NCBI GenBank assembly: GCA_047629195.1
Contig: JBLHWY010000011.1
Location: 3,061-67,060 of the forward strand
DNA: 64,000 nt
Source of the DNA: Candidatus Azotimanducaceae bacterium
Lineage (GTDB): Bacteria > Pseudomonadota > Gammaproteobacteria > Pseudomonadales > Azotimanducaceae
Direction of reading: 5' to 3'
Translations under genes and position numbers: made by a program
The notes under the pieces: model-generated
The model's database searches: none
What the model saw: only the letters and a program-made list of their open reading frames with translations
Told to the model about the DNA's origin: nothing
Shown here: piece by piece, positions 13,485 to 33,359 of the stretch
Layout of the letters: each line of letters starts with the position of its first letter
Position numbering within the stretch: the stretch's first letter is position 1

Positions 13485-14387
13485 ATGACACAAATGCCTG
13501 CATTAAGTCTTGCCGCTGTACCGGGTCGAAGAAAAGCAACCATAGAACTCGCTCAGGAAATTGAGAAGCGAGGCTTTAGTGGTATTTACGGTCCTAGTCT
13601 TGGAGATTCAATGGCGCTCTGTGAAGCGCTAGCGCTGGCGACTAATGAGATAACATTCGGTACTACTATTATGCCGATCTATTTTCGCCAAGTCTCTGAC
13701 TTTGCCCAAACAGCATCTTTTATTCACGAAGTGTCTGATGGTAGGTTCCGCTTTGGCATAGGTGTAAGTCATGCTCCGGCACTCAAGTCACGGGGGCTGT
13801 CCGGTGGTAAGCCGCTCACTGATACTCGTAATTTTGTCGAGGAGCTTCGCGCTGTACCCAGAGCGGGTGAACTGCCACCAATAGTGCTCGCCACCTTGAG
13901 AAAAAAGATGATCGCTTTATCGGAAGAGATAGCGAGCGGCATGGTGTTTGCGAATGGTGCGCGATCCCACATGAAAGAATCTCTTTCAACATTGAGCGCA
14001 GCCGCTCGTGATAGCGATGACTTTTTTATAGGTGACATGATCCCTACCTGTATTAACGATGATATTGAGGCTGCGAAGGCGGTGAATCGTAAAACGTTAA
14101 CTTCCTATGCGATGTTGCCCAATTACCGAAACTACTGGAAAGAAGCGGGGTATGAAGAAGAAATGACTGCGATTGAACAAGCTGTCGAAGCGAAGGATTA
14201 TGCGAAGGTACCGACCTTGCTTAGTGATAGGTGGTTAGCAGATACGACATTGTTTGGTACCGCGTCTGACGTCAGGGAAGGCCTCGAAGCCTGGTTTGAT
14301 GCCGGCGTTAAAACACCAATCCTGGTACCTTCTTCTGCTAATGGCGGTCAGATGAAGGCTTTTGAAGAAATGTTAGCTATCTTTTAG
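13485..14387 (+). CDS. Luciferase-like (LLM class) flavin/F420-dependent oxidoreductase
   Basis: TIM-barrel LLM pattern ELAQEIEKRGFSGIYGPSLGDSMALCEALALATNEITFGTTIMPIY...GRFRFGIGVSH. RBS AGGGAGA lies before the ATG. Confidence 0.75.
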   Translation: MTQMPALSLAAVPGRRKATIELAQEIEKRGFSGIYGPSLGDSMALCEALALATNEITFGTTIMPIYFRQVSDFAQTASFIHEVSDGRFRFGIGVSHAPALKSRGLSGGKPLTDTRNFVEELRAVPRAGELPPIVLATLRKKMIALSEEIASGMVFANGARSHMKESLSTLSAAARDSDDFFIGDMIPTCINDDIEAAKAVNRKTLTSYAMLPNYRNYWKEAGYEEEMTAIEQAVEAKDYAKVPTLLSDRWLADTTLFGTASDVREGLEAWFDAGVKTPILVPSSANGGQMKAFEEMLAIF

Positions 14388-14462: not shown

Positions 14463-15284
14463 TTATGTGAATTCGAAATTAATCGAGCCAAAGTCGCCGT
14501 AATCTGCGCAATATCTACCCAGGGTTGCGGGATAAGGTCTGCCTATTGAACCTGTCATTAGGTATGTGCCAGCATCGATCGTATAGCCTTGTTTGATCAC
14601 CTGGTTGGCCAGCCAAGTCACAGCTATAATTTGTCCGTTCATCGCATCATTTGCTGATCCGGTACCCAAAGGTTCGTTGTTTCTCGATAAGGTTACTGAG
14701 ACGTCTGCCAGTGCCTCAACAGCTTGATCATTGATACTGGTCAGAGTTTCACCTGGAATGTAGTTCGCAGCAGCGTTATTGATTGCTATCAAATCAACCG
14801 CGCCGGCTAACTTGCCATCAACACCCACATCTACTATTTCGATCATGGGGAGCGCATGCCCTATGTGCGCTAACAATTCGCTCGTGGAAAGAGATTCTGC
14901 GCTGTGTGGAATATCTTTGTTTACCAGAAAGCCTATCTCTGTTTCGATGAGGGGAGATAGATAATCCGAGGTAGAAATAGTTGTGTTTGGCGAGAGCTGA
15001 CTGCTTTCAAACAACACGCCCATGGCGCTAGAATTCGTGCTAAACATTTTCTGGGCACCGGCGTTTGTGAGAGCTCCTTTAAACCCCGAAATATTGTTGC
15101 TTGCGCTTCTTTGTTCAACCTTCCTTTTTTGAACAAGTCTCTTCTCAACATAGAGTTTGAGTGCTTGATACGACGTAGCCTCTGTCGCATCTGGCAAAAA
15201 TGTTCGTAGTAAAGGCTTCGGACGTCCTGAGTTACTTTCTGCAAGTAGCAGTCGCACATAATCGTCAATCGTGGTTTGAGCCAT
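14463..15284 (-). CDS. 2-oxopent-4-enoate hydratase-like (hydratase/decarboxylase family)
   Basis: SYQALKLYVEKRL...ISGFKGALTNAGAQKMF...PLIETEIGFLVNKDI resembles the MhpD/HpcG-type G-x-K-x-G and E-x-E-hydrophobic-x-F motifs. Confidence 0.55.
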   Translation of the reverse strand: MAQTTIDDYVRLLLAESNSGRPKPLLRTFLPDATEATSYQALKLYVEKRLVQKRKVEQRSASNNISGFKGALTNAGAQKMFSTNSSAMGVLFESSQLSPNTTISTSDYLSPLIETEIGFLVNKDIPHSAESLSTSELLAHIGHALPMIEIVDVGVDGKLAGAVDLIAINNAAANYIPGETLTSINDQAVEALADVSVTLSRNNEPLGTGSANDAMNGQIIAVTWLANQVIKQGYTIDAGTYLMTGSIGRPYPATLGRYCADYGDFGSINFEFT

Positions 15285-15326
15285 TTCTCTATGTTTCCCA
15301 TGTTGTCTAAATGCTTCGTCTGTTCC

Positions 15327-16091
15327 CTAAGTGGCGCTGATGTTTTCTAAATGTTGATTTAGGAAGTTGGTGCACTTCTCCCAGGCGTCTTCGCTTTGAT
15401 GTTCCCTATATTGATCCGGGCTGGAGAAATTTTGAAAGGCATGCCCGGCAGCGTCATAGCGATGGAACGTAAATTCTACATTATGTTCGGTGAGTGCTCT
15501 CTCGTATTCGTTTACTAATTCTGGCGTAGGATTCTGGTCTTCATTTCCGAAAAATCCAGCGACTGGACAGGTGATATTCTTAGCGTGTTGTAGGGGAGAT
15601 AGCATCTGCTCGGTCACTACGCTTGGACCGAGTTTCTTATCAATTCTTCCACCGTAGAATATAGCGCAGGCTTTGATTTCAGGTATCTTGCAGGCACCCA
15701 ACCAGCTTACTCTGCCTCCCCAGCAATGACCAATGATGCCTATTCTTGACTCATTAACATTGGGTCGAGTTTTGAGTATCTCGTGAGTTGCTTTTAAGTC
15801 ATTTACGACCCAGTCGTCACGAAATTCAGCAGCTTTAACCTTCATGTCTTGGCCTTTTGGCCACCAGTGGAAAATAAAGGGAACTGCGACAACATATCCT
15901 GCATCTGCTAGCCGCTGCGCGCTAGTTAGTGTAAATGTATCGTGTTCGAGTCCAGCATGACCAACAGGAATGTGCTGGCAGAGAATGACAGCGGGGTGGG
16001 TTCCTTCAGAACGAGGCGAGAATAGGAATACGTCCATCGAGTTCCCATCCACGAATGTTGTTTTAATTTGATAATTCAAGTTAGTTTGCAT
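15327..16091 (-). CDS. Dienelactone hydrolase family protein
   Basis: Nucleophile elbow with Cys, IGIIGHCWGG, and a C-terminal AGHAF histidine context. Confidence 0.8.
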   Translation of the reverse strand: MQTNLNYQIKTTFVDGNSMDVFLFSPRSEGTHPAVILCQHIPVGHAGLEHDTFTLTSAQRLADAGYVVAVPFIFHWWPKGQDMKVKAAEFRDDWVVNDLKATHEILKTRPNVNESRIGIIGHCWGGRVSWLGACKIPEIKACAIFYGGRIDKKLGPSVVTEQMLSPLQHAKNITCPVAGFFGNEDQNPTPELVNEYERALTEHNVEFTFHRYDAAGHAFQNFSSPDQYREHQSEDAWEKCTNFLNQHLENISAT

Positions 16092-16512
16092 CCTTGTGAA
16101 TGAGGTTCGTTGGTCGTTTCGGGTTTTCGTTTAACGATAAAGATGAAATAGATCCTTAGCTAACCGTGGTACTTACATCTAGTATACTAGCCTATCAGGC
16201 ATATGACTGGTAATTCAAACGAACCAATGTGATTGATCTTCATTTTACTAATTGAAATATGTTTGAAGTCGTGCGAGGTACCCAGCATCCTGCGGATGCA
16301 GTCGCCGTCGAAGGGGGTTAGATTAGGCCAGTTTATTCCCGCACAAAATAACGGGCCTTTACGCACAGCAGTAAGACATAACCTGAAGCAAACTGGCTTC
16401 CCATTTAAGCCAGACCAATTTTGTTAGCCGTTAGGAGAGTAGCAGTGCGATGAGTGTTTTTACACCTGCTCCGTGTTTTCAATCTGATAGGATTGCAGCA
16501 TGAACGATTAGT

Positions 16513-18384
16513 TTAGAAGGCGACGGTGCGTTGAATTATCTGATCGTAAAAATCGCTGTCTAGTCTTACGTAACAATCTTCGCCGGGCTTCTTGACCAAC
16601 ACATAGTCGTCTAACTTGTCGAGATGAAAAGCTTCTTCCCGCAGACTGTTCTTCTGTAGTTTGTGAGTTGAGGTAGTAGGGAGTTCTGTCAGTATTCGGA
16701 TAAAAATTGGTCGAGCGTAGCTGGGTAGGCTTTCGTTGATGTGGTCGCTAAGGGATTTTAGATCGACATTACCCATAGATATACCTTCTTTAAATACAAT
16801 CGCAGCCATACCAGCACGACCATCTGTACCGGGTATTTGAACACCGTAGGCATTGCTGAAGATGACGTCTGGGTGTTGATTGATAATTTCGGCTAATTCA
16901 TTGGTTGAAACATTTTCACTTTTCCAACGGAAGGTATCACCAATTCTATCAACAAATTGATAGTGTTTTTGGCCGAAAGAAAAACCAACATCCACGATCT
17001 TCATCAAATCGCCACTGTTAAAATAGAGGTTCCCTTCTTCGACGACATTGCGGACTAACTTTTTTTCGGTAGCTTCGCCATTTGTATAGCCTTCAAATTT
17101 TGTCTTATTGGTGATTTCTATTAACAGCAGACCAGCGTCACCCTCTTTGACTTCAACGCAACAACCTTGTTCATCACGTATTATTTCGTCTTCGGCTACG
17201 TCGTATTTTACTAACTTGACTGGTGCTACGCCTAGGCCGACAGTACATGGTTTATTCAGAATGTTACCGAAACCTCCATTGCCTTCGCTGGCCGCGTAAA
17301 ACTCTCCGATTCTATCTATCTCAAATCTGGCCTTGAATTGATGCCAAATGTCAGGCCTGAGTCCATTCCCAATAATGGTTCTGATTGGATTGTCGGCATC
17401 GTTGACTTGCTCGGGGCGACTCATCAAATATCTAATCAGTTCGCCGATATAAATAAAACTAGTGCAGTTGTTTTTTCTTATATCCTCCCAGAATGCGCTA
17501 ATAGACAAACGTCTGCGAATGACGGTGGAAGCGCCAACATGAAAAGCGGCGAGCAAGCCCATGATGAGGCCAGTGCCGTGATAGAGCGGCAAGCAGTTGT
17601 ACATTCTGTCCGTATGATTTATCCGCAGCAGACTAACGCCTGCCATATGTGATCCTGAAATTGCTCTTTTGTTGGATACAATCGCAGCTTTGGGTAATCC
17701 GGTGGTTCCTGATGTGAAAATATAGAAGGCTGTTGCGCCAATAGTAATCGAATTTGTGATGGGTAGATTGTCAATGTTACCCGCGTCATCCTCTGGGTTT
17801 AGGGTAACAGCCCAGTTAGGCAGGTTGCTATTTTCGCCATCAGCAACCATGAGGAAGTCAGCTCCGTCCTTCATCTCAAGTTGATCCTTAACGTCGTTAA
17901 GGCTGTCGGTCATCTCTGACCCAAAAATACACTTCCGAGAATCAATGAGGTTTATACAATGTGTTAGCGGTTGCTTTGTTAGGTTGGTGTTAATGAGTCC
18001 CGCAGTGGCACCAGTCTTATTAATCCCTAATAGACAGGCAACAAAGGCGATGCGGTTCTGCATAAAGAGGCTGACGCAATCGCCGGGTTTGATACCCTGT
18101 GCCACAAGGGAGTTAGCAATAACGTTGGCCTGGTCATTTAATTCTTTCCAGCTGACTTGCGAGCCTTCACATATGAGCGCAACAGCATTTGGTCGCGTTA
18201 TTGCGTGTTTTTCAGCCAATTTTGCCATGCAGTCGAAGCTGTCATCTGGCGGAGATTTTAGGCGTGCTGCACTTAGCATCACCTTTAAATCTGCGAAGAA
18301 GTTACCAACCTTTCCCATCGAAACACCTATATAGTCTAATTTTTGTACAAATCTAACAAATGCTGCTTTCAGGAACCACCGCAT
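16513..18384 (-). CDS. Long-chain acyl-CoA synthetase / fatty-acid transport protein (FATP)-like
   Basis: AMP-binding motif YIFTSGTTGLPKAA, plus YHGTGL, FNSGDL and VDRIGDTFRWKSENVST. The real start may be Met23 (18318), because the longest ORF abuts the divergent neighbour by 1 bp. Confidence 0.8.
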   Translation of the reverse strand: MRWFLKAAFVRFVQKLDYIGVSMGKVGNFFADLKVMLSAARLKSPPDDSFDCMAKLAEKHAITRPNAVALICEGSQVSWKELNDQANVIANSLVAQGIKPGDCVSLFMQNRIAFVACLLGINKTGATAGLINTNLTKQPLTHCINLIDSRKCIFGSEMTDSLNDVKDQLEMKDGADFLMVADGENSNLPNWAVTLNPEDDAGNIDNLPITNSITIGATAFYIFTSGTTGLPKAAIVSNKRAISGSHMAGVSLLRINHTDRMYNCLPLYHGTGLIMGLLAAFHVGASTVIRRRLSISAFWEDIRKNNCTSFIYIGELIRYLMSRPEQVNDADNPIRTIIGNGLRPDIWHQFKARFEIDRIGEFYAASEGNGGFGNILNKPCTVGLGVAPVKLVKYDVAEDEIIRDEQGCCVEVKEGDAGLLLIEITNKTKFEGYTNGEATEKKLVRNVVEEGNLYFNSGDLMKIVDVGFSFGQKHYQFVDRIGDTFRWKSENVSTNELAEIINQHPDVIFSNAYGVQIPGTDGRAGMAAIVFKEGISMGNVDLKSLSDHINESLPSYARPIFIRILTELPTTSTHKLQKNSLREEAFHLDKLDDYVLVKKPGEDCYVRLDSDFYDQIIQRTVAF

Positions 18385-21072: not shown

Positions 21073-21678
21073 GTGCCTGAATTTGTAGTCAGATGTCGAA
21101 AAACCAGCACTGATCCTGACAAGCTTCTGGGCGGTATTGGCACGGGAGCGCACGTAGAATATCTGCCTCACATGATTGTGAGTGCGCTCTTTTTATCCAA
21201 AGCACATCGTCCCAACGTTAAGCTCTCGCTTATTTTCGAGGAAACGAGTGACTATTCGCGCAGATTGGTCTTGGAGGGGGGGACGCTAGGGACGGTCGGT
21301 GGTCATGATGAAAAGTCCTTACTTATGTTTCTCGCCAATGCGTTAAAAGAGGCGGGCTCCTTACCCAAGGAAACCTCGGTAACGACAGCTTCTGGTGTCT
21401 TGATCGAGACCATCAGCTTTGAGCATTTTGTTAAGCGAGAAGCCGAACGAAGTCCGGTATACGTGCTGGATAAGAAGGGGCCTGATATAAGGGAGCTTGA
21501 ATTGGCTCCCGACGCCATATTCGTGTTGACCGATCACATTCCCATGCCAAAAAAGACATTTAAATCCATGCTGCGACAAGGGGTAAAGAAGATTTCTTTA
21601 GGTCCCCAGATGTTGCATGCGTCTCAATGTATGACGTTGATAAATAACGAATATGATAGGTATTATTACCGCGGATAG
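21073..21678 (+). CDS. SPOUT-class methyltransferase homologous to archaeal TrmY (UPF0217/DUF358)
   Basis: (M)PEFVVRCRKTSTD...SALFLSKAHRPNVKLSLIF and IFVLTDHIPMPKK...KISLGPQMLHASQCMTLINNEYDR align by eye with M. jannaschii TrmY (MREFIFKA...; FIIGDHIG...[23 protein letters not shown]). Confidence 0.7.
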   Translation: MPEFVVRCRKTSTDPDKLLGGIGTGAHVEYLPHMIVSALFLSKAHRPNVKLSLIFEETSDYSRRLVLEGGTLGTVGGHDEKSLLMFLANALKEAGSLPKETSVTTASGVLIETISFEHFVKREAERSPVYVLDKKGPDIRELELAPDAIFVLTDHIPMPKKTFKSMLRQGVKKISLGPQMLHASQCMTLINNEYDRYYYRG

Positions 21679-21855: not shown

Positions 21856-22539
21856 ATGACAACAGAAGATACGGCAAGCACAATCAAGTCAATCGCTATC
21901 CTTGGCGGCACCGGTGATCTCGGCGGCGGTTTAGCCAGGCAGTGGTCTCGAGCAGGCTATCAAATACTGATCGGATCGCGTACAGAAGAAAAAGGCAAAG
22001 CTGCGGCAGATGAATTGTTGGCGGAGTTCCCAGATTTGAATGTCACAGGGCATGAGAATCTAGCTGCAGCCACAGCAGCGGATCTCGTTGTGTTGACAGT
22101 ACCGTTTGCCCATCAAATCAGCACCCTAGAATCCGTCAAGGCAGGTTTGTCTGGCAAAGTGCTCATTGATGTTACTGTGCCACTTATGCCACCCAAGGTC
22201 GGTACGGTGCAGTTGCCCGAGGCGGGCTGTGCTGCCGTTATGGCGCAGGAATGTGTTGGTGATGAAGTATTCGTGGTATCAGCGTTTCAGAATGTTGGGG
22301 CTATGCACCTGCAAGAAGATCATGCGATTGAGTGTGACGTGCTGGTGACCGGGAATAAGAAGGCAGCTAGAGACACTGTCATCACACTAGTTGAGGCGCT
22401 CGGTTTGAGAGGTTGGCATGCGGGTCCGCTGGCCAATGCTGCTGCTGCTGAAGCACTGACTTCCGTTCTCATCTCTATTAATCGTCATCATAAAATTAAT
22501 GGTGCAGGGATTGTGATTACCGGGGCACCTAGCAGCTAG
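21856..22539 (+). CDS. npdG: NADPH-dependent F420 reductase
   Basis: Rossmann motif IAILGGTGDLGGGLARQWSRAGYQILIGSRTEEKGKAAADEL. About 227 aa, and it sits directly upstream of cofE/cofD/cofC. Confidence 0.85.
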   Translation: MTTEDTASTIKSIAILGGTGDLGGGLARQWSRAGYQILIGSRTEEKGKAAADELLAEFPDLNVTGHENLAAATAADLVVLTVPFAHQISTLESVKAGLSGKVLIDVTVPLMPPKVGTVQLPEAGCAAVMAQECVGDEVFVVSAFQNVGAMHLQEDHAIECDVLVTGNKKAARDTVITLVEALGLRGWHAGPLANAAAAEALTSVLISINRHHKINGAGIVITGAPSS

Positions 22540-22615
22540 TGTTTTGGGTTCGCTCTTGGCTCCAATCAGCTCCTAGTACCAATAATTTAAACCAGTATTG
22601 TGGAAGTTTTACGCT

Positions 22616-23395
22616 ATGAAGCTTGAGTTTATCGGCATTGAAAATATCCCTATGATCGAGCCTGGCGATGACCTGGCTACCTTAATTGAACAAGGGCTAG
22701 CGTCTATGGGAGAGCAATTACGAGATGATGACGTGCTTGTACTTGCTCAAAAAATTATTTCTAAAGTCGAAGATAGATATCTTGATTTAAGAACGGTTGT
22801 GCCTAGTGCCGAGGCTATTGCATTGGCTCAGGAAGTCGATAAACCGCCGAACAAAGTCCAAGCGATTTTAGATGAATCTAATGAAGTTGTTAGGAAGCGA
22901 AAGGGCGTTCTCATTGTTGAACATAAGCTTGGTTTTGTGCAGGCAAATGCGGGCATAGACCAATCAAATATTTCCCATGAAAATGATGCGGACGATAACA
23001 TGTGCCTGTTGTTGCCCGTTGATCCCGATGCAAGTGCTGCCAAATTGCGAAGTGAAGTTGAACGCCGACATGCTGTTAGTGTTGGTGTGATTATCAATGA
23101 CTCTATTGGCCGAGCCTGGCGTAATGGTTCGATGGGGCTTGCTATTGGTGTCTCGGGTTTTACCGCCATTGAAGACTATATTGGCATGACGGATATTTAT
23201 GGTCGTGAACTGATGGTGACGGAAGTTGCCGCGGCCGATGAGATGGCGGCTGGTGCTTCTCTCGTGATGGGCCAGACGAGCGAGAAAACGCCTGTTGTTT
23301 TGGTGCGCGGTTATAAGCCTAAAGAACCTATCGATAACTCTCGTGTTGGTGTTCGGCCGCTGATCCGAGAAAAACAAATGGATTTATTTCGCTAG
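22616..23395 (+). CDS. cofE: Coenzyme F420-0:L-glutamate ligase (single-domain CofE)
   Basis: MKLEFIGIENIPMIEPGDDLATLI...VLAQKIISKVEDRY...QANAGIDQSN...INDSIGRAWRNG. About 260 aa, so there is no FbiB-type C-terminal nitroreductase domain. Confidence 0.85.
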   Translation: MKLEFIGIENIPMIEPGDDLATLIEQGLASMGEQLRDDDVLVLAQKIISKVEDRYLDLRTVVPSAEAIALAQEVDKPPNKVQAILDESNEVVRKRKGVLIVEHKLGFVQANAGIDQSNISHENDADDNMCLLLPVDPDASAAKLRSEVERRHAVSVGVIINDSIGRAWRNGSMGLAIGVSGFTAIEDYIGMTDIYGRELMVTEVAAADEMAAGASLVMGQTSEKTPVVLVRGYKPKEPIDNSRVGVRPLIREKQMDLFR

Positions 23396-23396
23396 T

Positions 23397-24389
23397 ATGA
23401 ATGAGCCTACAGCAAAGAACTGTTTAGCAATCTCTGGAGGTGTCGGTGGGGCGAAACTTGCGCTCGGCTTGTCACATTGTTTGCCTTCCGAAAAACTCTG
23501 TGTTGTGGCAAACACAGGTGATGATTTTACCCACTTAGGGTTTAAAATTTGCCCAGACCTGGATACAGTTTTGTACACGCTGGCGGATCTGAATAACAAA
23601 GAACTTGGTTGGGGCCAACAAGGTGAATCGTGGAATTTTCTCAGTGCACTTGAGTCATTGGGCGGAGAAAGCTGGTTTCAGCTGGGCGATAGAGATCTCG
23701 CAACACATTGCGTGCGGTCCCAATTGCTCGCTGCCGGCGCTAGTCTCTCAGACGCAACAAAGCATTTATGTAAAGCAATGGGTGTTGAATTAAACCTTTG
23801 CCCCATGACCGACGATGAAGTTGCAACCATCGTGCATTGTGAAGTTGAGGATTCTGAAAGCGGGGAAAAACGAATTGTGCCGATGGCATTTCAACATTAT
23901 TTCGTCAGAGATCGCTGCCAGCCCAGCGTGACCGGATTTTCCTTCGATGGCATGTCCTCAGCAAAACCAAGTGACGATTTTGTTGCTGCACTCACAAGCG
24001 AGGATCTTGGTTCCATTATTATTTGTCCGTCTAATCCCTTTGTCAGTGTTGATCCTGTGCTTAAATTGCCAGGCGTCTTAGAAGCGATAAAGAATGCCAG
24101 AGTGCCAGTAATAGCCATCTCGCCTATTGTTGGCGGACAGGCAATCAAGGGTCCCGCAGCAAAAATGATGGCTGAACTCGGTATGCCGGCCAGCGCACTA
24201 GCAGTTGCAGAGCATTACAAGGGCAAAATTGATGGATTTGTCATTGATGAGGCAGATGCCGACCTAAAAGAAGATATTGAAGGTTTAGGTATACCTACTA
24301 TCGTGACCAAATCTGTCATGGTAACGTTAGAAGATCGAATAGGATTAGCGAAAGAAGTGCTTCAGTTTGCCAGCAAATTAGCTTCCTGA
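23397..24389 (+). CDS. cofD: 2-phospho-L-lactate (LPPG:FO) transferase
   Basis: ISGGVGGAKLALGL...VANTGDDFTHLGFKICPDLDTVLYTLA...WFQLGDRDLATH. The start lies 1 nt after the cofE stop. Confidence 0.9.
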   Translation: MNEPTAKNCLAISGGVGGAKLALGLSHCLPSEKLCVVANTGDDFTHLGFKICPDLDTVLYTLADLNNKELGWGQQGESWNFLSALESLGGESWFQLGDRDLATHCVRSQLLAAGASLSDATKHLCKAMGVELNLCPMTDDEVATIVHCEVEDSESGEKRIVPMAFQHYFVRDRCQPSVTGFSFDGMSSAKPSDDFVAALTSEDLGSIIICPSNPFVSVDPVLKLPGVLEAIKNARVPVIAISPIVGGQAIKGPAAKMMAELGMPASALAVAEHYKGKIDGFVIDEADADLKEDIEGLGIPTIVTKSVMVTLEDRIGLAKEVLQFASKLAS

Positions 24390-24432
24390 GCCATTACTTG
24401 ATCTATTTTAGTGACATTAACTACTTGGCAAA

Positions 24433-25170
24433 ATGATACCTGAAATGAATACGACTGCGGTTATCCCAATTAAGCAGCTTAATGACGCCAAGAAGCGTCT
24501 GGCAAATTATCTGTCTGTGAGCCAGCGCCGTGCTTTATGCCAGGTAATGTTTGAGGATGTGCTGGAAGCGGTGACCACTTGTGATCGTATTGATGATGTT
24601 GTCGTCGTCACAAATGACGAATCTGTCGCATCAATCGCATTTTCATATTCCGCACGAGTCATTCCTGAACCCGAACAGCCTGGTTTAATTGCGGCAGTAA
24701 CACATGCGGCTGATTTGCTTGCCTCTGAGGGTACTGTGAATATGGTCTTTCTGCCTGGCGATGTACCGCTTGTGAGCGTTGAAGAACTTGAGGTTGTGCT
24801 AGATGGGTTTGGATTGAGTGGTGTGCCTGAATTTTTGATTGTGCCAGCCGAGGATCTCGGTGGCTCAAATTGTGTTGTTTGTTCGCCGCCCAATTGCATC
24901 GAATTCCTATTTGGCCTCGATAGCTTTAGAAAGCATCTGAAGGAGTCTAAGGATCGTGGAATTGAACCATCAATAGCTAAACTTCCTGGACTGGGATTGG
25001 ATGTAGACACGCCGGATGATCTGGCCGTGTTAGGTGAAATACTGCTTCGGCAGGAAGTAACAACTAGGACCCATCGATTTTTGCTTCAGGCCGGCTTAAT
25101 GATGCACCCGAGCGATCAGAATGAAAACCAGAGTAAAAACCAGAGTGAGAATAGATTAGCGCGAAGTTAA
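24433..25170 (+). CDS. cofC: Phospho-lactate/enolpyruvate guanylyltransferase (CofC/FbiD)
   Basis: AVIPIKQLNDAKKRLANYLSVSQRRALCQVMFEDVLEAV...VVVVTNDESV...FLPGDVPLVS. Low-complexity C-terminal tail NENQSKNQSENR. Confidence 0.8.
   Translation: MIPEMNTTAVIPIKQLNDAKKRLANYLSVSQRRALCQVMFEDVLEAVTTCDRIDDVVVVTNDESVASIAFSYSARVIPEPEQPGLIAAVTHAADLLASEGTVNMVFLPGDVPLVSVEELEVVLDGFGLSGVPEFLIVPAEDLGGSNCVVCSPPNCIEFLFGLDSFRKHLKESKDRGIEPSIAKLPGLGLDVDTPDDLAVLGEILLRQEVTTRTHRFLLQAGLMMHPSDQNENQSKNQSENRLARS
25124..25146 (+). repeat. 12-bp-period tandem repeat (AAAACCAGAGT twice) inside the cofC 3' end
   Basis: AAAACCAGAGT at 25124-25134 and again at 25136-25146. It encodes the NQSKNQS tail. Confidence 0.7.
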
Positions 25171-25204
25171 ATTGCCTGATCAAAAACCTACCGGATAAAT
25201 AGTT

Positions 25205-27757
25205 ATGACCACCATTAGTGAACAACGAATTTCTGAGCTGCTGGATACCGCAGTTGCAGGACCTCTTTCAGATGCAGATATTCTCCAGTTGTCGGAAACC
25301 AATAATACTGCAGCCTTGATGAATGTTGCCGCAGTGATACGCGATAGGGGACATCAAAATGTTGTGTCGTATTCGCGAAAAGTTTTTATTCCGCTAACGC
25401 ACCTCTGTCGTGATGTTTGTCACTACTGTACCTTTGCACAAGTGCCTAGAAAGCTGAAGGCGCCGTATCTGACGCCTGAAGAAGTATTGAAAATTGCCAC
25501 TGATGGGTCGAAAGCAGGTTGTAAGGAAGCGTTGTTTACGCTCGGCGATAGACCCGAAATGCGATACAAAGCCGCTCGGGACGGGCTGAAGGAGCTTAAA
25601 CAGGACTCCACGCTATCATATCTGCATGATATGGCGGAGTTGGTGTTCGCAGAAACGGGGATGCAGCCTCACCTAAACCCAGGGTTGATGAGCGCGACAG
25701 AATTGGCAGAGCTCAGAAAAGTATCTGTTTCGATGGGAATTATGTTGGAAAGCGCCTCGCCTCGGTTGTTGGAAAAGGGCATGCCGCATTATGGTTCTCC
25801 TGATAAAGATCCTGCCCTAAGGTTAGAGACGATTAGACTAGCAGGGGAAGCGAAGATACCTTTCACCTCTGGCATCCTAATTGGCATTGGCGAGACAAGG
25901 CGTGAGCGAATCGAGTCTTTGATCGCTTTACGTGCAGCTAATGTCGATCACGGTCATATTCAAGAAATTATCATTCAGAACTTCAGGGCGAAAGCTGACA
26001 CATTGATGGTAAATGCGCCTGAGCCTGACCTGAATGAGCTGTTATGGACGTTGGCCTTGGCAAGGATTACCTTTGGGCCGAAAATGAACATTCAAGCGCC
26101 ACCGAATTTGAGCCCAGGTGTGCTGGAACAAATCGTCGGTGCGGGGATCAATGACTGGGGCGGAGTGTCTCCGGTAACGCCTGACTTTGTTAACCCTGAA
26201 GCGCCATGGCCTCATTTGTCCCACCTTACAGACGAAACCGCTAAGGCGGGAAAGCTGCTGATTGAACGTCTGGCGATCTATCCTGACTATGCTCTTGATG
26301 TTGAAACCTGGCTCGACCCAGCGATGCAACCTATCGTACGAAGAGCGATTGATGGTGATGGTTTTGCCAGAACTGAAACCTGGTCTGCTGGAGCAGTGGG
26401 CGATCCTCCTGAGGCTGATCTCGCAAGGGTCACAAAAATTCCTCAGCGACGAGTAAGTGAAGATCTTGGTGGCATCCTAGAAAAAGCAAAATCAGGCACA
26501 GAGCTGTCTGAAAGTGAAATTGTTCGCTTGTTCAAAGCTAGAGGAGATGACTTAACCTACGTCTGTCAGGCTGCAAATGACGTCCGCAAAGATCTGGCCG
26601 GTGATGAAGTCACGTATTGTGTAAATAGAAACATTAATTACACCAATGTATGTTATTTCAAGTGTCAGTTCTGTGCTTTCTCGAAAGGAAAGATGAGTGA
26701 GAACTTGCGAGGGCGACCTTACGATCTTGATCCGGAAGAGATCATGCGTCGAACCAAAGAAGCTTATGAGCGCGGTGCAACGGAAGTCTGCCTGCAAGGT
26801 GGTATTCATCCAGAATACGACGGTAATACTTACATCGATATTTGCCATAGCATCAAGCAAGTTATTCCGGAAATGCATATTCATGCTTTCTCTCCTTTGG
26901 AAGTTTGGCAGGGAGCGCACACGCTTGGTATTAGTCTTGAGGAATACCTAGGGAAATTGAAGGAAGCTGGGCTTGGAACATTACCGGGTACCGCGGCAGA
27001 AATTTTGGATGATGAAGTTCGAGCAACACTCTGCCCAGATAAGCTCAATTCTGAGCAATGGCTTGAAGTGATGGAAACAGCGCATGGTCAGGGGTTTAAT
27101 ACGACTGCCACGATCATGTACGGTCATATCGAAAAATATGAACATATCGCTCGGCACCTGTTGAAGATTCGGCGCTTGCAAGCAAAGACCCATGGGTTTA
27201 CCGAATTTGTCATTCTTCCCTTCATACATATGGAAGCCCCGATGTATTTGAAGGGTAATGCGAGGCAAGGCCCAACTTTTAGAGAAGCGTTGCTTATTCA
27301 TGCAATATCCCGATTGGTGTTAAACCCCTTGTTCAGAAACATTCAGGCTTCTTGGACCAAATTAGGGCATGCCGGTGTTGTAGCATGTTTGAATGCTGGC
27401 GTTAATGACATCGGCGGCACCTTGATGAATGAGACGATCACGCGTGCAGCTGGTGCCAGTCATGGGCAGGAAACAAGTCCGGAGGAAATGGAGCGCATGA
27501 TCCTTTCAGCGGGTCGTCGGCCAAGACAGCGGGCAACAGACTACGGTGAAGTTAGTGAACTTCAGCAGCAGCGTGGTCGTGGTGCGAAAACATTACTTGA
27601 GCCAGAATATACCTCAGCGAAGAAATACGAACGAAAAAAGCCGGGAACGAAAAAGAAAGATCTTTATCGTCCAGGTCTAGAGTCGACGGACAAAATGCCA
27701 GACTCATCTAACGATGACCATGATGAGGACAAAATATCGAGTGCGGATATTATTTAG
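25205..27757 (+). CDS. fbiC: FO synthase, fused CofG+CofH radical-SAM enzyme (FbiC)
   Basis: Two radical-SAM CxxxCxxC motifs (CRDVCHYCTF and CYFKCQFCAF) in one 850-aa ORF. A charged C-terminal extension of about 70 aa is present. Confidence 0.9.
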   Translation: MTTISEQRISELLDTAVAGPLSDADILQLSETNNTAALMNVAAVIRDRGHQNVVSYSRKVFIPLTHLCRDVCHYCTFAQVPRKLKAPYLTPEEVLKIATDGSKAGCKEALFTLGDRPEMRYKAARDGLKELKQDSTLSYLHDMAELVFAETGMQPHLNPGLMSATELAELRKVSVSMGIMLESASPRLLEKGMPHYGSPDKDPALRLETIRLAGEAKIPFTSGILIGIGETRRERIESLIALRAANVDHGHIQEIIIQNFRAKADTLMVNAPEPDLNELLWTLALARITFGPKMNIQAPPNLSPGVLEQIVGAGINDWGGVSPVTPDFVNPEAPWPHLSHLTDETAKAGKLLIERLAIYPDYALDVETWLDPAMQPIVRRAIDGDGFARTETWSAGAVGDPPEADLARVTKIPQRRVSEDLGGILEKAKSGTELSESEIVRLFKARGDDLTYVCQAANDVRKDLAGDEVTYCVNRNINYTNVCYFKCQFCAFSKGKMSENLRGRPYDLDPEEIMRRTKEAYERGATEVCLQGGIHPEYDGNTYIDICHSIKQVIPEMHIHAFSPLEVWQGAHTLGISLEEYLGKLKEAGLGTLPGTAAEILDDEVRATLCPDKLNSEQWLEVMETAHGQGFNTTATIMYGHIEKYEHIARHLLKIRRLQAKTHGFTEFVILPFIHMEAPMYLKGNARQGPTFREALLIHAISRLVLNPLFRNIQASWTKLGHAGVVACLNAGVNDIGGTLMNETITRAAGASHGQETSPEEMERMILSAGRRPRQRATDYGEVSELQQQRGRGAKTLLEPEYTSAKKYERKKPGTKKKDLYRPGLESTDKMPDSSNDDHDEDKISSADII

Positions 27758-27810
27758 CACCGACAATAAAGTATACGCAGATTTGGATATCTAAAATAAA
27801 ACATACGAGG

Positions 27811-28815
27811 ATGATAACGATGCCAGTGCCACAAAGAACCGCACTAACACTACCTGACCCGCGAGGGGTTTTTGAGACCATAGAACTAGCTAAATGGGCC
27901 GAAGCTGAAGGTTATGATGATCTGTGGTTTGCGGATAGTTCCGGTGTTGATGCGCTCACAACTGCTGCGGCAGTGGCACTGAATACTAGTCGCTGTCGGA
28001 TTGGAACCGCCATTATACCCGTGTTTTCTCGAACGCCAGCCGTTTTGGCCTCCACGGCCCATGTACTACACCAACTCTCGGGCGGAAGATTTATTCTCGG
28101 TTTGGGTTCTTCTAGTCAAACGATGATGGAAAATTGGCACGGGCTACAATTTGAAAAGCCACTGTCACGTGTGAAAGAAACGACTCAGTTGATTAAAAGT
28201 ATGCTGAGGGGCGAGAAGAGTGATTTTGATGGCACCACGGTAAAGAGTAAAGGCTATCGGCAGCTGCCTCTGGAAGACGGTGCTCAGCCTGTCTATATGG
28301 CCGCTCTTAGAAGCAAAATGCTTGAAGCGGCGGCGGAGTTTAGTGACGGAGTCATTCTGAACTTGTTTCCGAAAGACGCATTGCCAAAAATGATGGAGCA
28401 CATCAAAATTGGTGCGGAAAGGGCAGGTAAGAAATTAGAAGACATTGAAATAGTTTGCCGACATCAAGTAATTGTTAGTGATGATAAAGAAAATGCGAGA
28501 AACTTCATTCGTCGTGGCTTTGCTCCCTATTATGCGACTCCTGTATACAATTCGTTTCTTGCGTGGGCTGGATATGAAGACGTTGCGAAAGAAATTTCAG
28601 AAGGTTGGGCGGCCAAGGATAGAGATCGCACGACGGGCGCATTAAGTGACCAATTGGTTGATGACATTGCAATTCTAGGTTCGATGGGCGAATGCCATGA
28701 CCGTATTCGAGAATATGGTGAAATGGGTATTACAACGCATATCATTTCATGCGTATCTCCTAAAGAATCGCAGGCAACTTACGAAGCATTTACGGGTAAG
28801 AACTTTAGCTTCTAA
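27811..28815 (+). CDS. LLM-class F420-dependent oxidoreductase
   Basis: Luciferase-like pattern ELAKWAEAEGYDDLWFADS...IGTAIIPVFSRTPAVLA...GGRFILGLGSS. It is adjacent to fbiC. Confidence 0.8.
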   Translation: MITMPVPQRTALTLPDPRGVFETIELAKWAEAEGYDDLWFADSSGVDALTTAAAVALNTSRCRIGTAIIPVFSRTPAVLASTAHVLHQLSGGRFILGLGSSSQTMMENWHGLQFEKPLSRVKETTQLIKSMLRGEKSDFDGTTVKSKGYRQLPLEDGAQPVYMAALRSKMLEAAAEFSDGVILNLFPKDALPKMMEHIKIGAERAGKKLEDIEIVCRHQVIVSDDKENARNFIRRGFAPYYATPVYNSFLAWAGYEDVAKEISEGWAAKDRDRTTGALSDQLVDDIAILGSMGECHDRIREYGEMGITTHIISCVSPKESQATYEAFTGKNFSF

Positions 28816-28886
28816 CCAGCTATTGAGTGTTTTCTACCTGTGAAGTTTTGCCAAATTAGCTTTAAAAATTCATAAAGGACTAAAAA

Positions 28887-29921
28887 ATGAAATTAGGAAT
28901 ACTCAGCGGCTACTCTGGCCGAAATATGGATCTTGGTATCGAGCGGATTCAAGCGGCTGAAAGCATGGGCTATGAGTCGGTTTGGACAGCAGAAGCCTAT
29001 GGTTCTGATGCTGTAACCCCAGCAGCATGGATTCTTGCTAATACTCAGAAGATGAAAGTTGGTACTGCGATCATGCAAATGCCCGCAAGAACACCGGCAT
29101 GTACCGCAATGACTGCGATGACGTTGAATCAGCTATCAAATGGCAGATTCATTTGTGGTCTTGGGGCTTCTGGACCACAAGTTGTCGAGGGATGGCACGG
29201 AGTTGCGTATGGCCGGCCGATCACACGAACACGAGAATATATTGAAATTCTTCGAATGATAATGGCCCGCGAAGGTAAGGCTGAATACGAAGGTTATCAC
29301 TATAATTTGCCATACAACGGTGAGGATGGAACCGGACTTGGAAAGCCTTTAAAGAGTATCCTTCAAGCTGACACAAGCATTCCGATCTACACTGCATCAA
29401 TTACTGAAACTGGTCTTGCGACTAGCGCAGAACTTGCGGATGGCGTGTTCCCAGTATGGATGAACCCGGACCGATACGACGTATTTGAACCTAGTATCAC
29501 TAAGGGGCTGAAGAAAGCTGACAAAACATTAATGGATTTTGATATAGCACCATTTGTGACCTGCATACTTGGTGATGATGTAGAGGCTTGTCGAGCACCA
29601 ATTAAGGGAAGTATGGCTCTGTACATCGGTGGTATGGGAGCAAGAGATAAGAATTTCTATAATGATTACGCTAAGGCGCTTGGCTTTGAAGATGCTGCTA
29701 TCAAAATCCAAGACCTGTTTCTTGCTGGCAAAAAAGATGAAGCGGCCGCCGCGGTTCCTGACGAATTAGTTGACGCAACTCATCTTGTTGGACCGAAAGA
29801 GAAAATTGTCGAGCGTCTGCAAGCTTGGAAAGCTGCAGGTGAAAAAGGACATGTTGGTAATATGTTGATTGGCGCCGGTCAAACAGAAGCGTTAGAGCTC
29901 ATTGCCAGCGAAATGTTATAA
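28887..29921 (+). CDS. LLM-class F420-dependent oxidoreductase
   Basis: AAESMGYESVWTAEAYGSDAVTPAAWILANTQKMKVGTAIMQMPARTPA...NGRFICGLGASGPQVVEGWHG. Confidence 0.8.
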   Translation: MKLGILSGYSGRNMDLGIERIQAAESMGYESVWTAEAYGSDAVTPAAWILANTQKMKVGTAIMQMPARTPACTAMTAMTLNQLSNGRFICGLGASGPQVVEGWHGVAYGRPITRTREYIEILRMIMAREGKAEYEGYHYNLPYNGEDGTGLGKPLKSILQADTSIPIYTASITETGLATSAELADGVFPVWMNPDRYDVFEPSITKGLKKADKTLMDFDIAPFVTCILGDDVEACRAPIKGSMALYIGGMGARDKNFYNDYAKALGFEDAAIKIQDLFLAGKKDEAAAAVPDELVDATHLVGPKEKIVERLQAWKAAGEKGHVGNMLIGAGQTEALELIASEML

Positions 29922-30036: not shown

Positions 30037-31218
30037 ATGAGTTATACATTAAGAGCCTGTAGCGACATCACAGAAATTGGGCGCGATGCATGGGAATCCT
30101 GTGCAAACCCAGTGTCATCAGATTTTCTACCTCTGCAAGTCCCATTTGATCCTTTTGTTTCGTATCCTTTTCTCCATGCTTTGGAGAAAAGTCGCTCTGC
30201 GATCGCTGAAACCGGATGGGCACCCTATCATCTGGTGCTAGAAGACGAGGTGGGTCAAGCTTCAGGCATTGTGCCTATGTACCTAAAAAGCCATTCGCAA
30301 GGAGAGTATGTATTTGATTATTCGTGGGCTGATGCTTTTGAGCGGGCTGGTGGTGAATACTATCCGAAGTTACAGATCGCGGTCCCGTTCACGCCAGCGA
30401 CCGGTAGACGTCTACTGGTACCTGATCACAAGGATGTCGCTTCAATTCAAGATCATTTGTTAGGTGGTGTAACCCAAGTGGCAGAAAAGCTGGGCGTCTC
30501 CTCTGTGCACATCACTTACGCAGAAGAAGCACAGTGGGAAAAGATGGGTTCGTTTGGTTTCCTCCAACGTACTCACCAACAGTTTCACTGGCAGAATCAG
30601 GATTTCTCACACTTTGATGACTTTCTTGCTGCGCTTTCCTCAAAGAAAAGAAAGAATATCCGGCGAGAAAGAAAAGCAGCACTCGCTGGTGGCGTCGAGA
30701 TTGAAAGATTGACGGGTGAGCAGATAACGGAAGAGCACTGGGACGCTTTTTACAGATTTTATGTTGATACGGGTGGCCGAAAATGGGGTACTCCATATCT
30801 TACCCGAGAATTTTTCTCTCTGATCGGCGAGTCGATGGCTGAGAGTATTTTGCTCGTGATGTGTCGACGTGAAGGTCGTTATGTTGCTGGCGCAATCAAT
30901 TTCATTGGCGGCGAATGCCTTTTCGGTCGGAACTGGGGGTGTATCGAAGATCATCCCTTTCTACACTTTGAAGTTTGTTATTATCAAGCCATCGAATATG
31001 CGATCGAGCATGGACTAAAGCGAGTCGAAGCTGGCGCGCAGGGGCAGCACAAATTGGCGCGTGGGTATCTGCCCACACATACCTACAGTGCTCACTGGAT
31101 CGTGAATGCTTCTTTTCGGGAGGCGATTTCGAATTTTCTTGAGCAGGAAAATAAATATATTGACGAAGAAATCGAATATCTGGACGAACACTCCCCGTTC
31201 AGAGCGTCTGACTCATAG
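30037..31218 (+). CDS. DUF482 / FemAB-like GNAT-fold acyltransferase family protein
   Basis: N-terminus ITEIGRDAWESCANP...DPFVSYPFLHALEKS...GWAPYHLVL and ...ALSSKKRKNIRRERK...FEVCYYQAIEYAIEHGLKRVEAGAQGQHKLARGY match my memory of DUF482. Confidence 0.65.
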   Translation: MSYTLRACSDITEIGRDAWESCANPVSSDFLPLQVPFDPFVSYPFLHALEKSRSAIAETGWAPYHLVLEDEVGQASGIVPMYLKSHSQGEYVFDYSWADAFERAGGEYYPKLQIAVPFTPATGRRLLVPDHKDVASIQDHLLGGVTQVAEKLGVSSVHITYAEEAQWEKMGSFGFLQRTHQQFHWQNQDFSHFDDFLAALSSKKRKNIRRERKAALAGGVEIERLTGEQITEEHWDAFYRFYVDTGGRKWGTPYLTREFFSLIGESMAESILLVMCRREGRYVAGAINFIGGECLFGRNWGCIEDHPFLHFEVCYYQAIEYAIEHGLKRVEAGAQGQHKLARGYLPTHTYSAHWIVNASFREAISNFLEQENKYIDEEIEYLDEHSPFRASDS

Positions 31219-31520
31219 AGTTCGATTCAAGCTGGGCTATCTCGAATTTTACGGATAGCACAATTGCTTTGCCCTTGTTCATTATTACGGGTCTATATTG
31301 GCTTGGCATCCACCGTGTTGTGTCGGTACGCCTTAGCAAGATCTACTCTCTTCTATTTCTGACGAAGACTGCTTACAATTTAGAATATGCTGAAGTTAAG
31401 CGGGTAAATCATAAGCGTTTGTGCAGGTAACTTTTAGCGGTCAAAGTCGAATCCAGAGATGTACAATAGCGCGAAGTATACGGCTTGGTTAGTTGAAGCG
31501 AAGTGCGATTAGGGAGAGAT

Positions 31521-32375
31521 ATGTCAGAGCGAGAATACTATTTAACAGATGTGTTTGCTGAAGGTCCTTATGCCGGCAATAGATTAGCCACGGTCACCGA
31601 TGCTGCTGATTTGAGCACGACGGAAATGCAGAATATCGCGTTAGCCTTCAATTTTGCCGAGACGACTTTTATTTGCGGCGGGTCAGCAGAAAGTGGCTTT
31701 GATGTTCGGATTTTTACCCCAGCCGCAGAAATACCGTTTGCCGGGCACCCGACGCTCGGCACAGCATTTCTTCTTCGTCATGTTTTGCATCGAAGTGATG
31801 AAGCTACTGTCGATTTAAATCTTGCCGCAGGAAAAATCCCAGTGACCTTTTCGGATGATGGCATTGTGTGGATGCGTCAGAATCAGCCGATATTTGGTAA
31901 ACAGTTGGACCATGTTTATGTATCTGAACAACTAGGTATTGATGAATCTATGTTGGATGTAAGCGTTCCCTGCCAGTATGTTTCCACTGGCTTGGAATTT
32001 TTATTAATACCTCTGAGTTCACCTCAAGCACTGAATGAAATATCCATCGGCATCAACGATTTAGCGCCGTCCGTATTTTTTTTCTGTAAGGGAGGGTATA
32101 GCGATGAACAGCAAATTTCCGCGCGAATGTTCGCCGAGGAGTTTGGTATAAGCGAGGACCCGGCAACAGGGAGTGCTAATGGATGTTTGGCTGCCTATTT
32201 GGTCGAGCATGAGTATTTTGAATCTGCGGAGTTAGACATTAAGGTTGGGCAGGGTTACGAGATCCAACGACCTTCCCAGCTTTATCTTCGAGCTAAGAAG
32301 GTTGCAGATAACCATTTCGAGCTGAACGTAGGTGGTCGAGTGAACCTAGTGGCAAGCGGTCAATGGTTATTGTGA
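31521..32375 (+). CDS. PhzF-family isomerase
   Basis: YYLTDVFAEGPYAGNRLATV, FNFAETTF, FAGHPTLGTAF and EDPATGSANGCLAAYL. ATG at 31521 is preceded by AGGGAGAG. Confidence 0.8.
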   Translation: MSEREYYLTDVFAEGPYAGNRLATVTDAADLSTTEMQNIALAFNFAETTFICGGSAESGFDVRIFTPAAEIPFAGHPTLGTAFLLRHVLHRSDEATVDLNLAAGKIPVTFSDDGIVWMRQNQPIFGKQLDHVYVSEQLGIDESMLDVSVPCQYVSTGLEFLLIPLSSPQALNEISIGINDLAPSVFFFCKGGYSDEQQISARMFAEEFGISEDPATGSANGCLAAYLVEHEYFESAELDIKVGQGYEIQRPSQLYLRAKKVADNHFELNVGGRVNLVASGQWLL

Positions 32376-32405
32376 AGTTGGTTGATAAACTGATGGGTAT
32401 CTTGT

Positions 32406-33359
32406 GTGACTCTCGCCGGACACGGATACAGTATGTTGCCTAATGTAATTCTTGATGAGGCAGCGTTAAGCTATAGTAAAATGCTCCAGGCGCTCGGCAG
32501 TATTGAGAAATTTGAAACACATGACTGCGTTACTGCAAACCTGACCGATTGCAATATATTACTTGCCAATGCGCCGATGGCGGAGGCGTTTCTCCGAGCT
32601 GGTCATCGCGCCAATTGGATTCAGTCTACCTGGGCGGGGAACGCAGCGCTTATTCCACTCTTGCAGCAGACAGAGACCTGTCTCACCGGTGTGAAAGGTG
32701 TTTTTGGGCCACTCGTCGCAGAATACGTTTTTTCTTATATTCTTCCAGAGATCCGCGACAGGAGTCGATTAGAAAATGCCCAAAAGGAACATCGATGGGA
32801 CCTTTTTGAGCCCGGCTCGTTGCAGGATAAGGTGTTTGTCTTTATTGGCACGGGCTCTATAGGCTCGCACGTTGCTAGAGTTGCAAAGCTGTTCGGTATG
32901 AGCACTATTGGAGTATCGCGAAGTGGCTTAACCAAAGAGGGTTATGATCAAGTTTATCCAGTAACTCGTCTTCGACAAGCAGTGGCAACAGCAGACTATA
33001 TTTTGTTATCAGTGCCTGAAACCCCTGAAACATTTCGGTTGGTCAACAAAGCGGTGTTAGATGAGGTGAGGCAGGGTGCTACGCTCATTAATGTTGGCCG
33101 CGGTAGCACACTTGATATTGGCTCGATGTCCAACGCAATACATGAGGGGAGGTTAGGCGCTGCTATTTTAGACGTATTTGACGAAGAGCCACTAGCGGCG
33201 AGTCACCCGCTTTGGGACAGTCCTCGGGTCACTATTACGCCTCACCTGGCAGCGATAAGTAATCCTGAGGTAATCGTTAAGAAATTTATGAATAATCTGA
33301 AACACTATCGTCAAGGCGAAGAACTTGAAGATAGGATAGATCTCACGAAAGGATATTAA
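32406..33359 (+). CDS. D-isomer-specific 2-hydroxyacid dehydrogenase family protein
   Basis: NAD fold VFVFIGTGSIGSHVARVAKLFGM. Catalytic region LINVGRGSTLD...ILDVFDEEPL...ITPHLAA. An alternative start is at 32433. Confidence 0.8.
   Translation: MTLAGHGYSMLPNVILDEAALSYSKMLQALGSIEKFETHDCVTANLTDCNILLANAPMAEAFLRAGHRANWIQSTWAGNAALIPLLQQTETCLTGVKGVFGPLVAEYVFSYILPEIRDRSRLENAQKEHRWDLFEPGSLQDKVFVFIGTGSIGSHVARVAKLFGMSTIGVSRSGLTKEGYDQVYPVTRLRQAVATADYILLSVPETPETFRLVNKAVLDEVRQGATLINVGRGSTLDIGSMSNAIHEGRLGAAILDVFDEEPLAASHPLWDSPRVTITPHLAAISNPEVIVKKFMNNLKHYRQGEELEDRIDLTKGY

Follow-up and report, generated by a model that had tools for sequence, protein, structure and literature searches.

A conserved F420 operon with a single-domain CofE in a marine gammaproteobacterium, and the probable nature of its side chain

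The window analysed here, a stretch of 64,000 nucleotides from contig JBLHWY010000011.1 of the Candidatus Azotimanducaceae bacterium assembly GCA_047629195.1, carries at positions 21856-29921 a set of genes for the synthesis and use of coenzyme F420. This locus is very probably a working F420 operon of the Gram-negative type, and its product most likely carries the classical lactyl group, not a glyceryl one, as side chain. The operon is real, intact and conserved, of a known kind, and common in its lineage. Its seven genes, fno (or npdG), cofE, cofD, cofC, fbiC and two genes for luciferase-like oxidoreductases (LLM1 and LLM2), are arranged head to tail on the plus strand, with intergenic gaps of 58, 1, 43, 34, 53 and 71 nt (Table 1). 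Identities were assigned with Pfam and NCBIfam profiles, the curated NCBIfam cut-off (in bits) being applied to each gene; all five biosynthetic genes exceed the cut-offs of their equivalog families, and LLM1 and LLM2 those of their own families. An earlier note, made from the letters of this DNA, had described a co-directional F420 module here, and its gene names, strand and coordinates agree with the family assignments; the junctions, described there as short or overlapping, are indeed short (1 to 71 nt), and none of them overlaps.

FbiC is a fused CofG/CofH protein, as had been proposed, with two radical-SAM CxxxCxxC motifs at residues 68 and 483. Fno matches the T. fusca enzyme (PDB 5N2I) with 129 bits, and CofE the archaeal CofE structures 7ULD and 2PHN with about 165 bits. 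The earlier description of CofE as a protein of about 260 residues devoid of a reductase domain also holds: its 265 residues, within the roughly 250-270 of a stand-alone CofE, make up a ligase domain alone, spanned by TIGR01916 from residue 10 to 265 and by PF01996 from residue 17 to 238, and no nitroreductase domain was found in it with the Pfam and NCBIfam profiles. Since the ligase profile fills residues 10-265 and cofD begins one base past the cofE stop, CofE carries no such domain. Nor was FbiB's C-terminal domain (TIGR03553) found elsewhere in the genome, where the best match reaches 47.6 bits for a cut-off of 249.55, which bears out the suspicion that no canonical FbiB domain is encoded there. 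An order-wide survey with profile cut-offs, covering 301 sampled species-level genomes from 134 genera of Pseudomonadales, returned TIGR03553 above its cut-off in none of the 301. In the same survey, cofE exceeds its cut-off in 109 genomes and 43 genera, including all seven further genomes from the family to which the window belongs, so that the operon is not the unusual occurrence in a gammaproteobacterial setting for which it had been taken. The cofE open frames of these 109 genomes do not exceed 380 aa and are thus too short for an FbiB-type fusion (about 450 aa). The missing reductase, presented at first as a trait of this locus, is likewise a general gap of producers with a single-domain CofE, referred to as 'CofX' (PMC6450877); this reductase, or else the source of 2-phospho-L-lactate (2-PL), is the acknowledged CofX/CofB gap of such organisms (PMC6450877, PMC8498797).

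Conservation of the operon was examined in related loci, taken as the best 80 of 594 FbiC matches. The order fno-cofE-cofD-cofC-fbiC is kept in about 35 of these 80 loci, and cofE-cofD-cofC-fbiC without fno in front in about 10 more; among the Gammaproteobacteria, their hosts are members of Halieaceae, Spongiibacteraceae, Porticoccaceae, Litorivivens and Zhongshania, and the remaining hosts are Alphaproteobacteria and Acidobacteriota. The nearest FbiC loci, with 89% and 77% identity, belong to metagenome-assembled genomes (MAGs) of Candidatus (Ca.) Azotimanducaceae and other Pseudomonadales. In an unrooted tree of 78 FbiC sequences, a branch with a support of 93 sets the gammaproteobacterial ones apart, their nearest neighbours outside the class being Alphaproteobacteria, Acidobacteriota and Chloroflexota; no Actinobacteria are present among the best 80 of the 594 matches. 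Along the window the GC content is even, and over the whole genome it has a unimodal distribution. Together, the tree and the even GC fit a long residence of the operon and not a recent transfer, of which the comparison of FbiC phylogenies suggested in the earlier note thus gives no sign; as the tree has no root, the operon may nonetheless have passed between phyla long ago. Homologues of LLM2 (66-69% identity) are found a few kb from the operon in all six of the Acidobacteriota loci L056, L066, L071, L074, L076 and L081, and five of these, L081 being the exception, also have homologues (64-66% identity) of LLM3, the product of a third LLM gene located outside the operon. FbiC identity to the same loci is 60-64%, i.e., LLM2 and LLM3 are at least as similar, which suggests that both may have travelled together with the F420 operon. 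A further locus (L043), whose contig bears the title of a Klebsiella pneumoniae MAG, has an F420 operon of this marine type and clusters with uncultured Gammaproteobacteria; the contig is probably mis-binned.

The nature of the side chain depends on the substrates of CofC and CofD. A Ser or Thr at the position of S162 in the Mycetohabitans CofC (equivalent to G163 in M. tuberculosis FbiD) marks the use of 3-phosphoglycerate (3-PG), with contributions from H145 and M91, and replacement of S162 by other residues abolishes the preference for this substrate (PMC8764529). The window CofC was aligned to PDB 7P97 and 6BWG, and columns were counted over 52 CofC proteins from operon loci. Residues K14, L85, D110, S145/N146, G161 and S164 align with substrate- or metal-ion-binding residues of these structures, and G161, L85 and G143 occupy the positions of S162, M91 and H145, respectively, in the 3-PG enzymes. 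At the diagnostic column, the 52 proteins have Gly in 41 cases and Asp in 11, and never Ser or Thr. The Asp variant is found in 11 gammaproteobacterial loci, mostly from one FbiC clade (Table 1). Judged by these residues, the CofC pocket is of the type predicted to accept 2-PL or phosphoenolpyruvate (PEP), two substrates that the sequence as such does not separate. Gram-negative CofCs assayed in vitro otherwise favour 2-PL while taking some PEP, and CofD filters the resulting intermediates (PMC8764529). Similarity of the window CofD was considered as a clue to the use of lactyl- or enolpyruvyl-diphosphoguanosine and proved uninformative: it matches M. mazei CofD with 199 bits and M. smegmatis FbiA with 188 bits, which places it at an equal distance from the two. 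Of the lactyl, glyceryl and enolpyruvyl side chains that had all been left open, the glyceryl one is thus made unlikely by the CofC residues.

A reductase that could act on dehydro-F420-0 was sought in several ways. The genome holds 14 PF00881 nitroreductase genes, which were rejected as the known reductase since none reaches any NCBIfam cut-off. Nitroreductase orthogroups, clustered at 35% identity, were compared between seven F420-positive genomes (that of the window and six others) and four F420-negative ones, with two within-genus contrasts, and none was common to all seven F420-positive genomes; in one of these, a complete genome, the sole nitroreductase is YdjA-like and is also carried by its F420-negative relatives. 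The stand-alone nitroreductase-like enzyme that the earlier note had proposed to look for did not emerge, either as an FbiB-type match or as an orthogroup shared by the seven F420-positive genomes. In a survey of neighbouring genes (1341 open reading frames from the 80 loci, clustered), the recurrent neighbours were a short-chain dehydrogenase/reductase, LLMs, a UDG-family protein, an enoyl-CoA hydratase, a CoA-transferase and a major facilitator superfamily transporter; no nitroreductase gene was among these recurrent clusters, and none of them was universal or plausible as the reductase or as a kinase. A MurB paralogue acting as enolpyruvyl reductase was also discarded, as the genome has a single, housekeeping MurB only. 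At the level of gene content, these results argue that the missing step in these bacteria would not be filled by an enzyme of the nitroreductase fold.

In the proposed pathway, FbiC would produce the deazaflavin FO, CofC would activate a three-carbon phospho-acid with GTP, and CofD would transfer the activated phospho-acid to FO; the stand-alone CofE would then add the gamma-glutamyl tail and Fno would reduce the finished cofactor with NADPH. In turn, LLM1 and LLM2, together with about 40 F420-class LLMs encoded elsewhere, would spend F420H2 on organic substrates. There is about an even chance that the lactyl group comes from 2-PL present in the metabolite pool, and this route is ranked first because it requires no reductase and because pyruvate kinase makes 2-PL; we know of no dedicated kinase for this compound. 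Its formation by pyruvate kinase is that of a side product (PMC6904873), and CofB, as a source of 2-PL, was never identified in any organism (PMC6450877, PMC8498797). Several points weigh against this reading. The in vitro preference for 2-PL varies with the partner CofD, and a cognate CofC/D pair from Ca. Entotheonella moved towards PEP (PMC8764529); 2-PL is moreover believed to be in short supply in the majority of bacteria (PMC7253369). The F420 chemistry of the organism is itself predicted from its genes, and the nitroreductase comparison covered only seven F420-positive genomes, with clustering at 35% identity. Lastly, the host assembly is a bin of 6.6 Mb in 292 contigs (the window lying on C11), 90% complete with 5% contamination, so that a gene could be missing from it. 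The size of this assembly exceeds that of a same-genus genome (4.1 Mb) and of the rest of the family (2.5-3.0 Mb), with a homogeneous composition; the genome could be a much larger one, or close relatives may have been binned together.

The route ranked second, possible if rather unlikely, is that CofC uses PEP as in mycobacteria and that the resulting dehydro-F420-0 is saturated by a 'CofX' (PMC6450877) with a fold other than that of nitroreductases, the lactyl group being thereby obtained from PEP. PEP is abundant, which 2-PL is not (PMC7253369), the behaviour of the Ca. Entotheonella pair points in the same direction, and, with no FbiB domain or shared nitroreductase found, any reductase of this route would have to belong to another family. 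However, no conserved candidate lies beside the operon in the 80 loci, the obvious analogue for enolpyruvyl reduction, a MurB paralogue, is not present, and the Gram-negative CofCs favoured 2-PL in vitro. A less probable source of the missing activity is a nitroreductase subfamily with eight paralogues in the window's genome (Table 1), one of which would be a lineage-specific dehydro-F420-0 reductase. Among 300 further genomes of the order, this subfamily was found in only 7, each of them F420-positive; most of its members match TIGR03553 over most of the length of that model, with about 42-49 bits, and one copy lies directly upstream of an F420-class LLM gene, so the subfamily may be linked to F420. 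These scores are nevertheless far below 249.55, and weak TIGR03553 matches of a like kind are obtained at a lax threshold in F420-free genomes such as that of E. coli. In addition, 101 of the 109 F420-positive genomes lack the subfamily, among them the complete same-genus genome, and eight copies suggest varied substrates over a single biosynthetic step, which together make this explanation improbable.

Slightly more improbable again is that the unsaturated dehydro-F420 is never reduced and is kept as the working cofactor. This would agree with the failure to find a reductase in the genome, or TIGR03553 in the 301 genomes, and dehydro-F420 and F420 are reportedly identical in their redox properties (PMC7253369); but the stability of dehydro-F420 is lower than that of the saturated forms (PMC8764529), F420 itself has been reported from the Alphaproteobacteria tested (PMC8498797), and no organism has been reported with dehydro-F420 as its final cofactor. 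The least probable product is 3PG-F420, with the glyceryl side chain of Mycetohabitans, for which the reduction step would be unneeded. A single-domain CofE in a proteobacterial host is common to both cases (PMC8498797), but S162, M91 and H145 are replaced in the window CofC by Gly, Leu and Gly, and it is precisely mutation of S162 that removed the preference for 3-PG (PMC8764529). A lactyl F420, made from 2-PL or, less probably, from PEP, is therefore the product retained here. It could be, as a more general and rather tentative proposal, that F420-producing Pseudomonadales make saturated F420 without a nitroreductase-fold reductase, thanks to a new enzyme family that either provides 2-PL or reduces dehydro-F420-0.

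Use of the cofactor is suggested by the large number of candidate F420-dependent enzymes in the genome. It has 49 intact LLM genes, with no more than 67% mutual identity (for instance C2:36131-37174, C48:8764-9876 and C31:5539-6543), and individual scans assign most of them to F420-dependent classes, FMN types making up a handful of the families matched; three Ddn-like FDOR genes are also present. A mixed bin was considered as a cause of inflated LLM counts and rejected, as the unimodal GC content and the limited identity between paralogues indicate real paralogues. Several F420-class LLMs are found in F420-positive relatives and none in two F420-negative ones. By family assignment, this LLM and FDOR repertoire is a predicted expansion of F420 enzymes, similar to that of actinobacteria, in a marine gammaproteobacterium. 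Fno is the sole F420-reducing enzyme identified in the genome, and NADPH is thus the likely electron source.

Synteny extends beyond the seven genes. LLM1 is kept 3' of fbiC in the 12 closest loci, in which a DUF482/FemAB-like gene also follows LLM2. The DUF482, PhzF and 2-hydroxyacid dehydrogenase genes (30037-33359) had been speculatively connected to F420, and this connection does not stand: DUF482 is a near-universal single-copy gene (230 of 301 genomes), present in F420-free families and absent from several F420-positive genomes, i.e., it occurs independently of F420 and was rejected as a member of the module, and PhzF and the dehydrogenase, which are in the same position in three loci and one locus, respectively, are syntenic only in the closest relatives. 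No link of any of the three to F420 was found in the 80 loci or, for DUF482, in the 301 genomes. The third LLM gene noted earlier is real and kept upstream in relatives' loci; the best NCBIfam matches of LLM3 are F420-class LLMs, at no more than 99 bits and all below cut-off. A TrmY-like SPOUT methyltransferase gene lies directly upstream of fno, a position kept in 10 close relatives. On the opposite strand, further upstream, a group of genes of catabolic appearance encodes a 2-oxopent-4-enoate hydratase-like protein, a dienelactone hydrolase and an AMP-dependent ligase, the last of which is kept in relatives. A scan for promoters and terminators was uninformative, with fewer sites than in shuffled sequence.

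Table 1. Genes of the F420 operon, neighbouring genes of the window, and gene and locus sets mentioned in the text
Feature	Description	Position	Strand	Profile match (cut-off)
npdG/fno	NADPH-dependent F420 reductase, 227 aa, heads the operon	21856..22539	+	TIGR01915, 183.8 bits (149.8)
cofE	Single-domain F420-0:L-glutamate ligase, 265 aa	22598..23395	+	TIGR01916, 262.8 bits (180.65)
cofD	Predicted phospho-lactyl/enolpyruvyl transferase, 330 aa	23397..24389	+	TIGR01819, 295.5 bits (257.45)
cofC	Guanylyltransferase, 245 aa, predicted 2-PL/PEP-type pocket (L85, G143, G161, S164)	24433..25170	+	TIGR03552, 150 bits (105)
fbiC	Fused CofG/CofH FO synthase, 850 aa	25205..27757	+	NF006687, 1118 bits (1018)
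LLM1	Predicted F420-dependent luciferase-like oxidoreductase, 334 aa	27811..28815	+	TIGR03841, 231.7 bits (213.65)
LLM2	Predicted F420-dependent luciferase-like oxidoreductase, 344 aa	28887..29921	+	TIGR03559, 382.8 bits (335)
LLM3	Luciferase-like oxidoreductase, 300 aa, accessory, outside the operon	13485..14387	+	PF00296, 116 bits
Catabolic-type genes	2-oxopent-4-enoate hydratase-like, dienelactone hydrolase, AMP-dependent ligase	14463-18384	opposite	
TrmY-like gene	SPOUT methyltransferase	21073-21678		NF002560, 162.7 bits (183, not reached)
DUF482 gene	FemAB-like	30037-31218		
Nitroreductase subfamily	Eight paralogues in the window's genome	C191:2135-2752, C40:10193-10828, C48:8175-8825, C3:49038-49748, C39:29600-30250, C39:23709-24374, C1:317-961, C263:630-1226		
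Asp-type CofC loci	L027, L029, L033, L034, L038, L040, L045, L048, L067, L068, L072			

The locus itself adds little, standard annotation being sufficient to name every gene. The wider picture is that more than a third of the sampled genomes of a large marine order carry cofE, and that in this genome the operon goes with a set of F420-class enzymes expanded as in actinobacteria, which speaks for a genuine role in metabolism, probably the breakdown of organic compounds. The negative result with nitroreductases also narrows the hunt for the missing F420 step in organisms with a single-domain CofE; since both F420-positive and F420-negative genomes are plentiful in the order, some of them paired within a genus, the missing enzyme, if it exists as proposed, could be found by phylogenetic profiling of whole proteomes.

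Among known systems, the window operon most resembles the clusters of Paracoccus denitrificans and Oligotropha carboxidovorans (PMC8498797), with which it shares a fused FbiC, a single-domain CofE, a CofC of the predicted 2-PL/PEP type, Fno as the reductant, the lack of an FbiB reductase domain and an unsettled origin of the lactyl group. It differs from them in its host, a marine gammaproteobacterium, a class unmentioned in that work, in its two attached F420-class LLM genes, and in the approximately 49 LLM paralogues of its genome, compared with only trace F420 in those Alphaproteobacteria (PMC8498797). The mycobacterial FbiABCD system likewise has a fused FbiC and a large LLM and FDOR repertoire, and the window CofD is as near to FbiA as to archaeal CofD; unlike in mycobacteria, however, CofE is devoid of the C-terminal nitroreductase domain of FbiB, which is not found elsewhere in the genome either, and fno is part of the operon. 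A proteobacterial host, a stand-alone CofE and Fno as the sole known reductant are shared with the 3PG-F420 pathway of Mycetohabitans, from which the window CofC departs by not having S162, H145 and M91. As in the pathway of Thermomicrobium roseum, which has FbiE as a stand-alone nitroreductase, CofE is separate from any reductase, but no nitroreductase consistently co-occurs with the operon in the F420-positive genomes compared, a distinction drawn here without the FbiE sequence. Finally, the predicted type of the CofC pocket is that of the archaeal 2-PL pathway.

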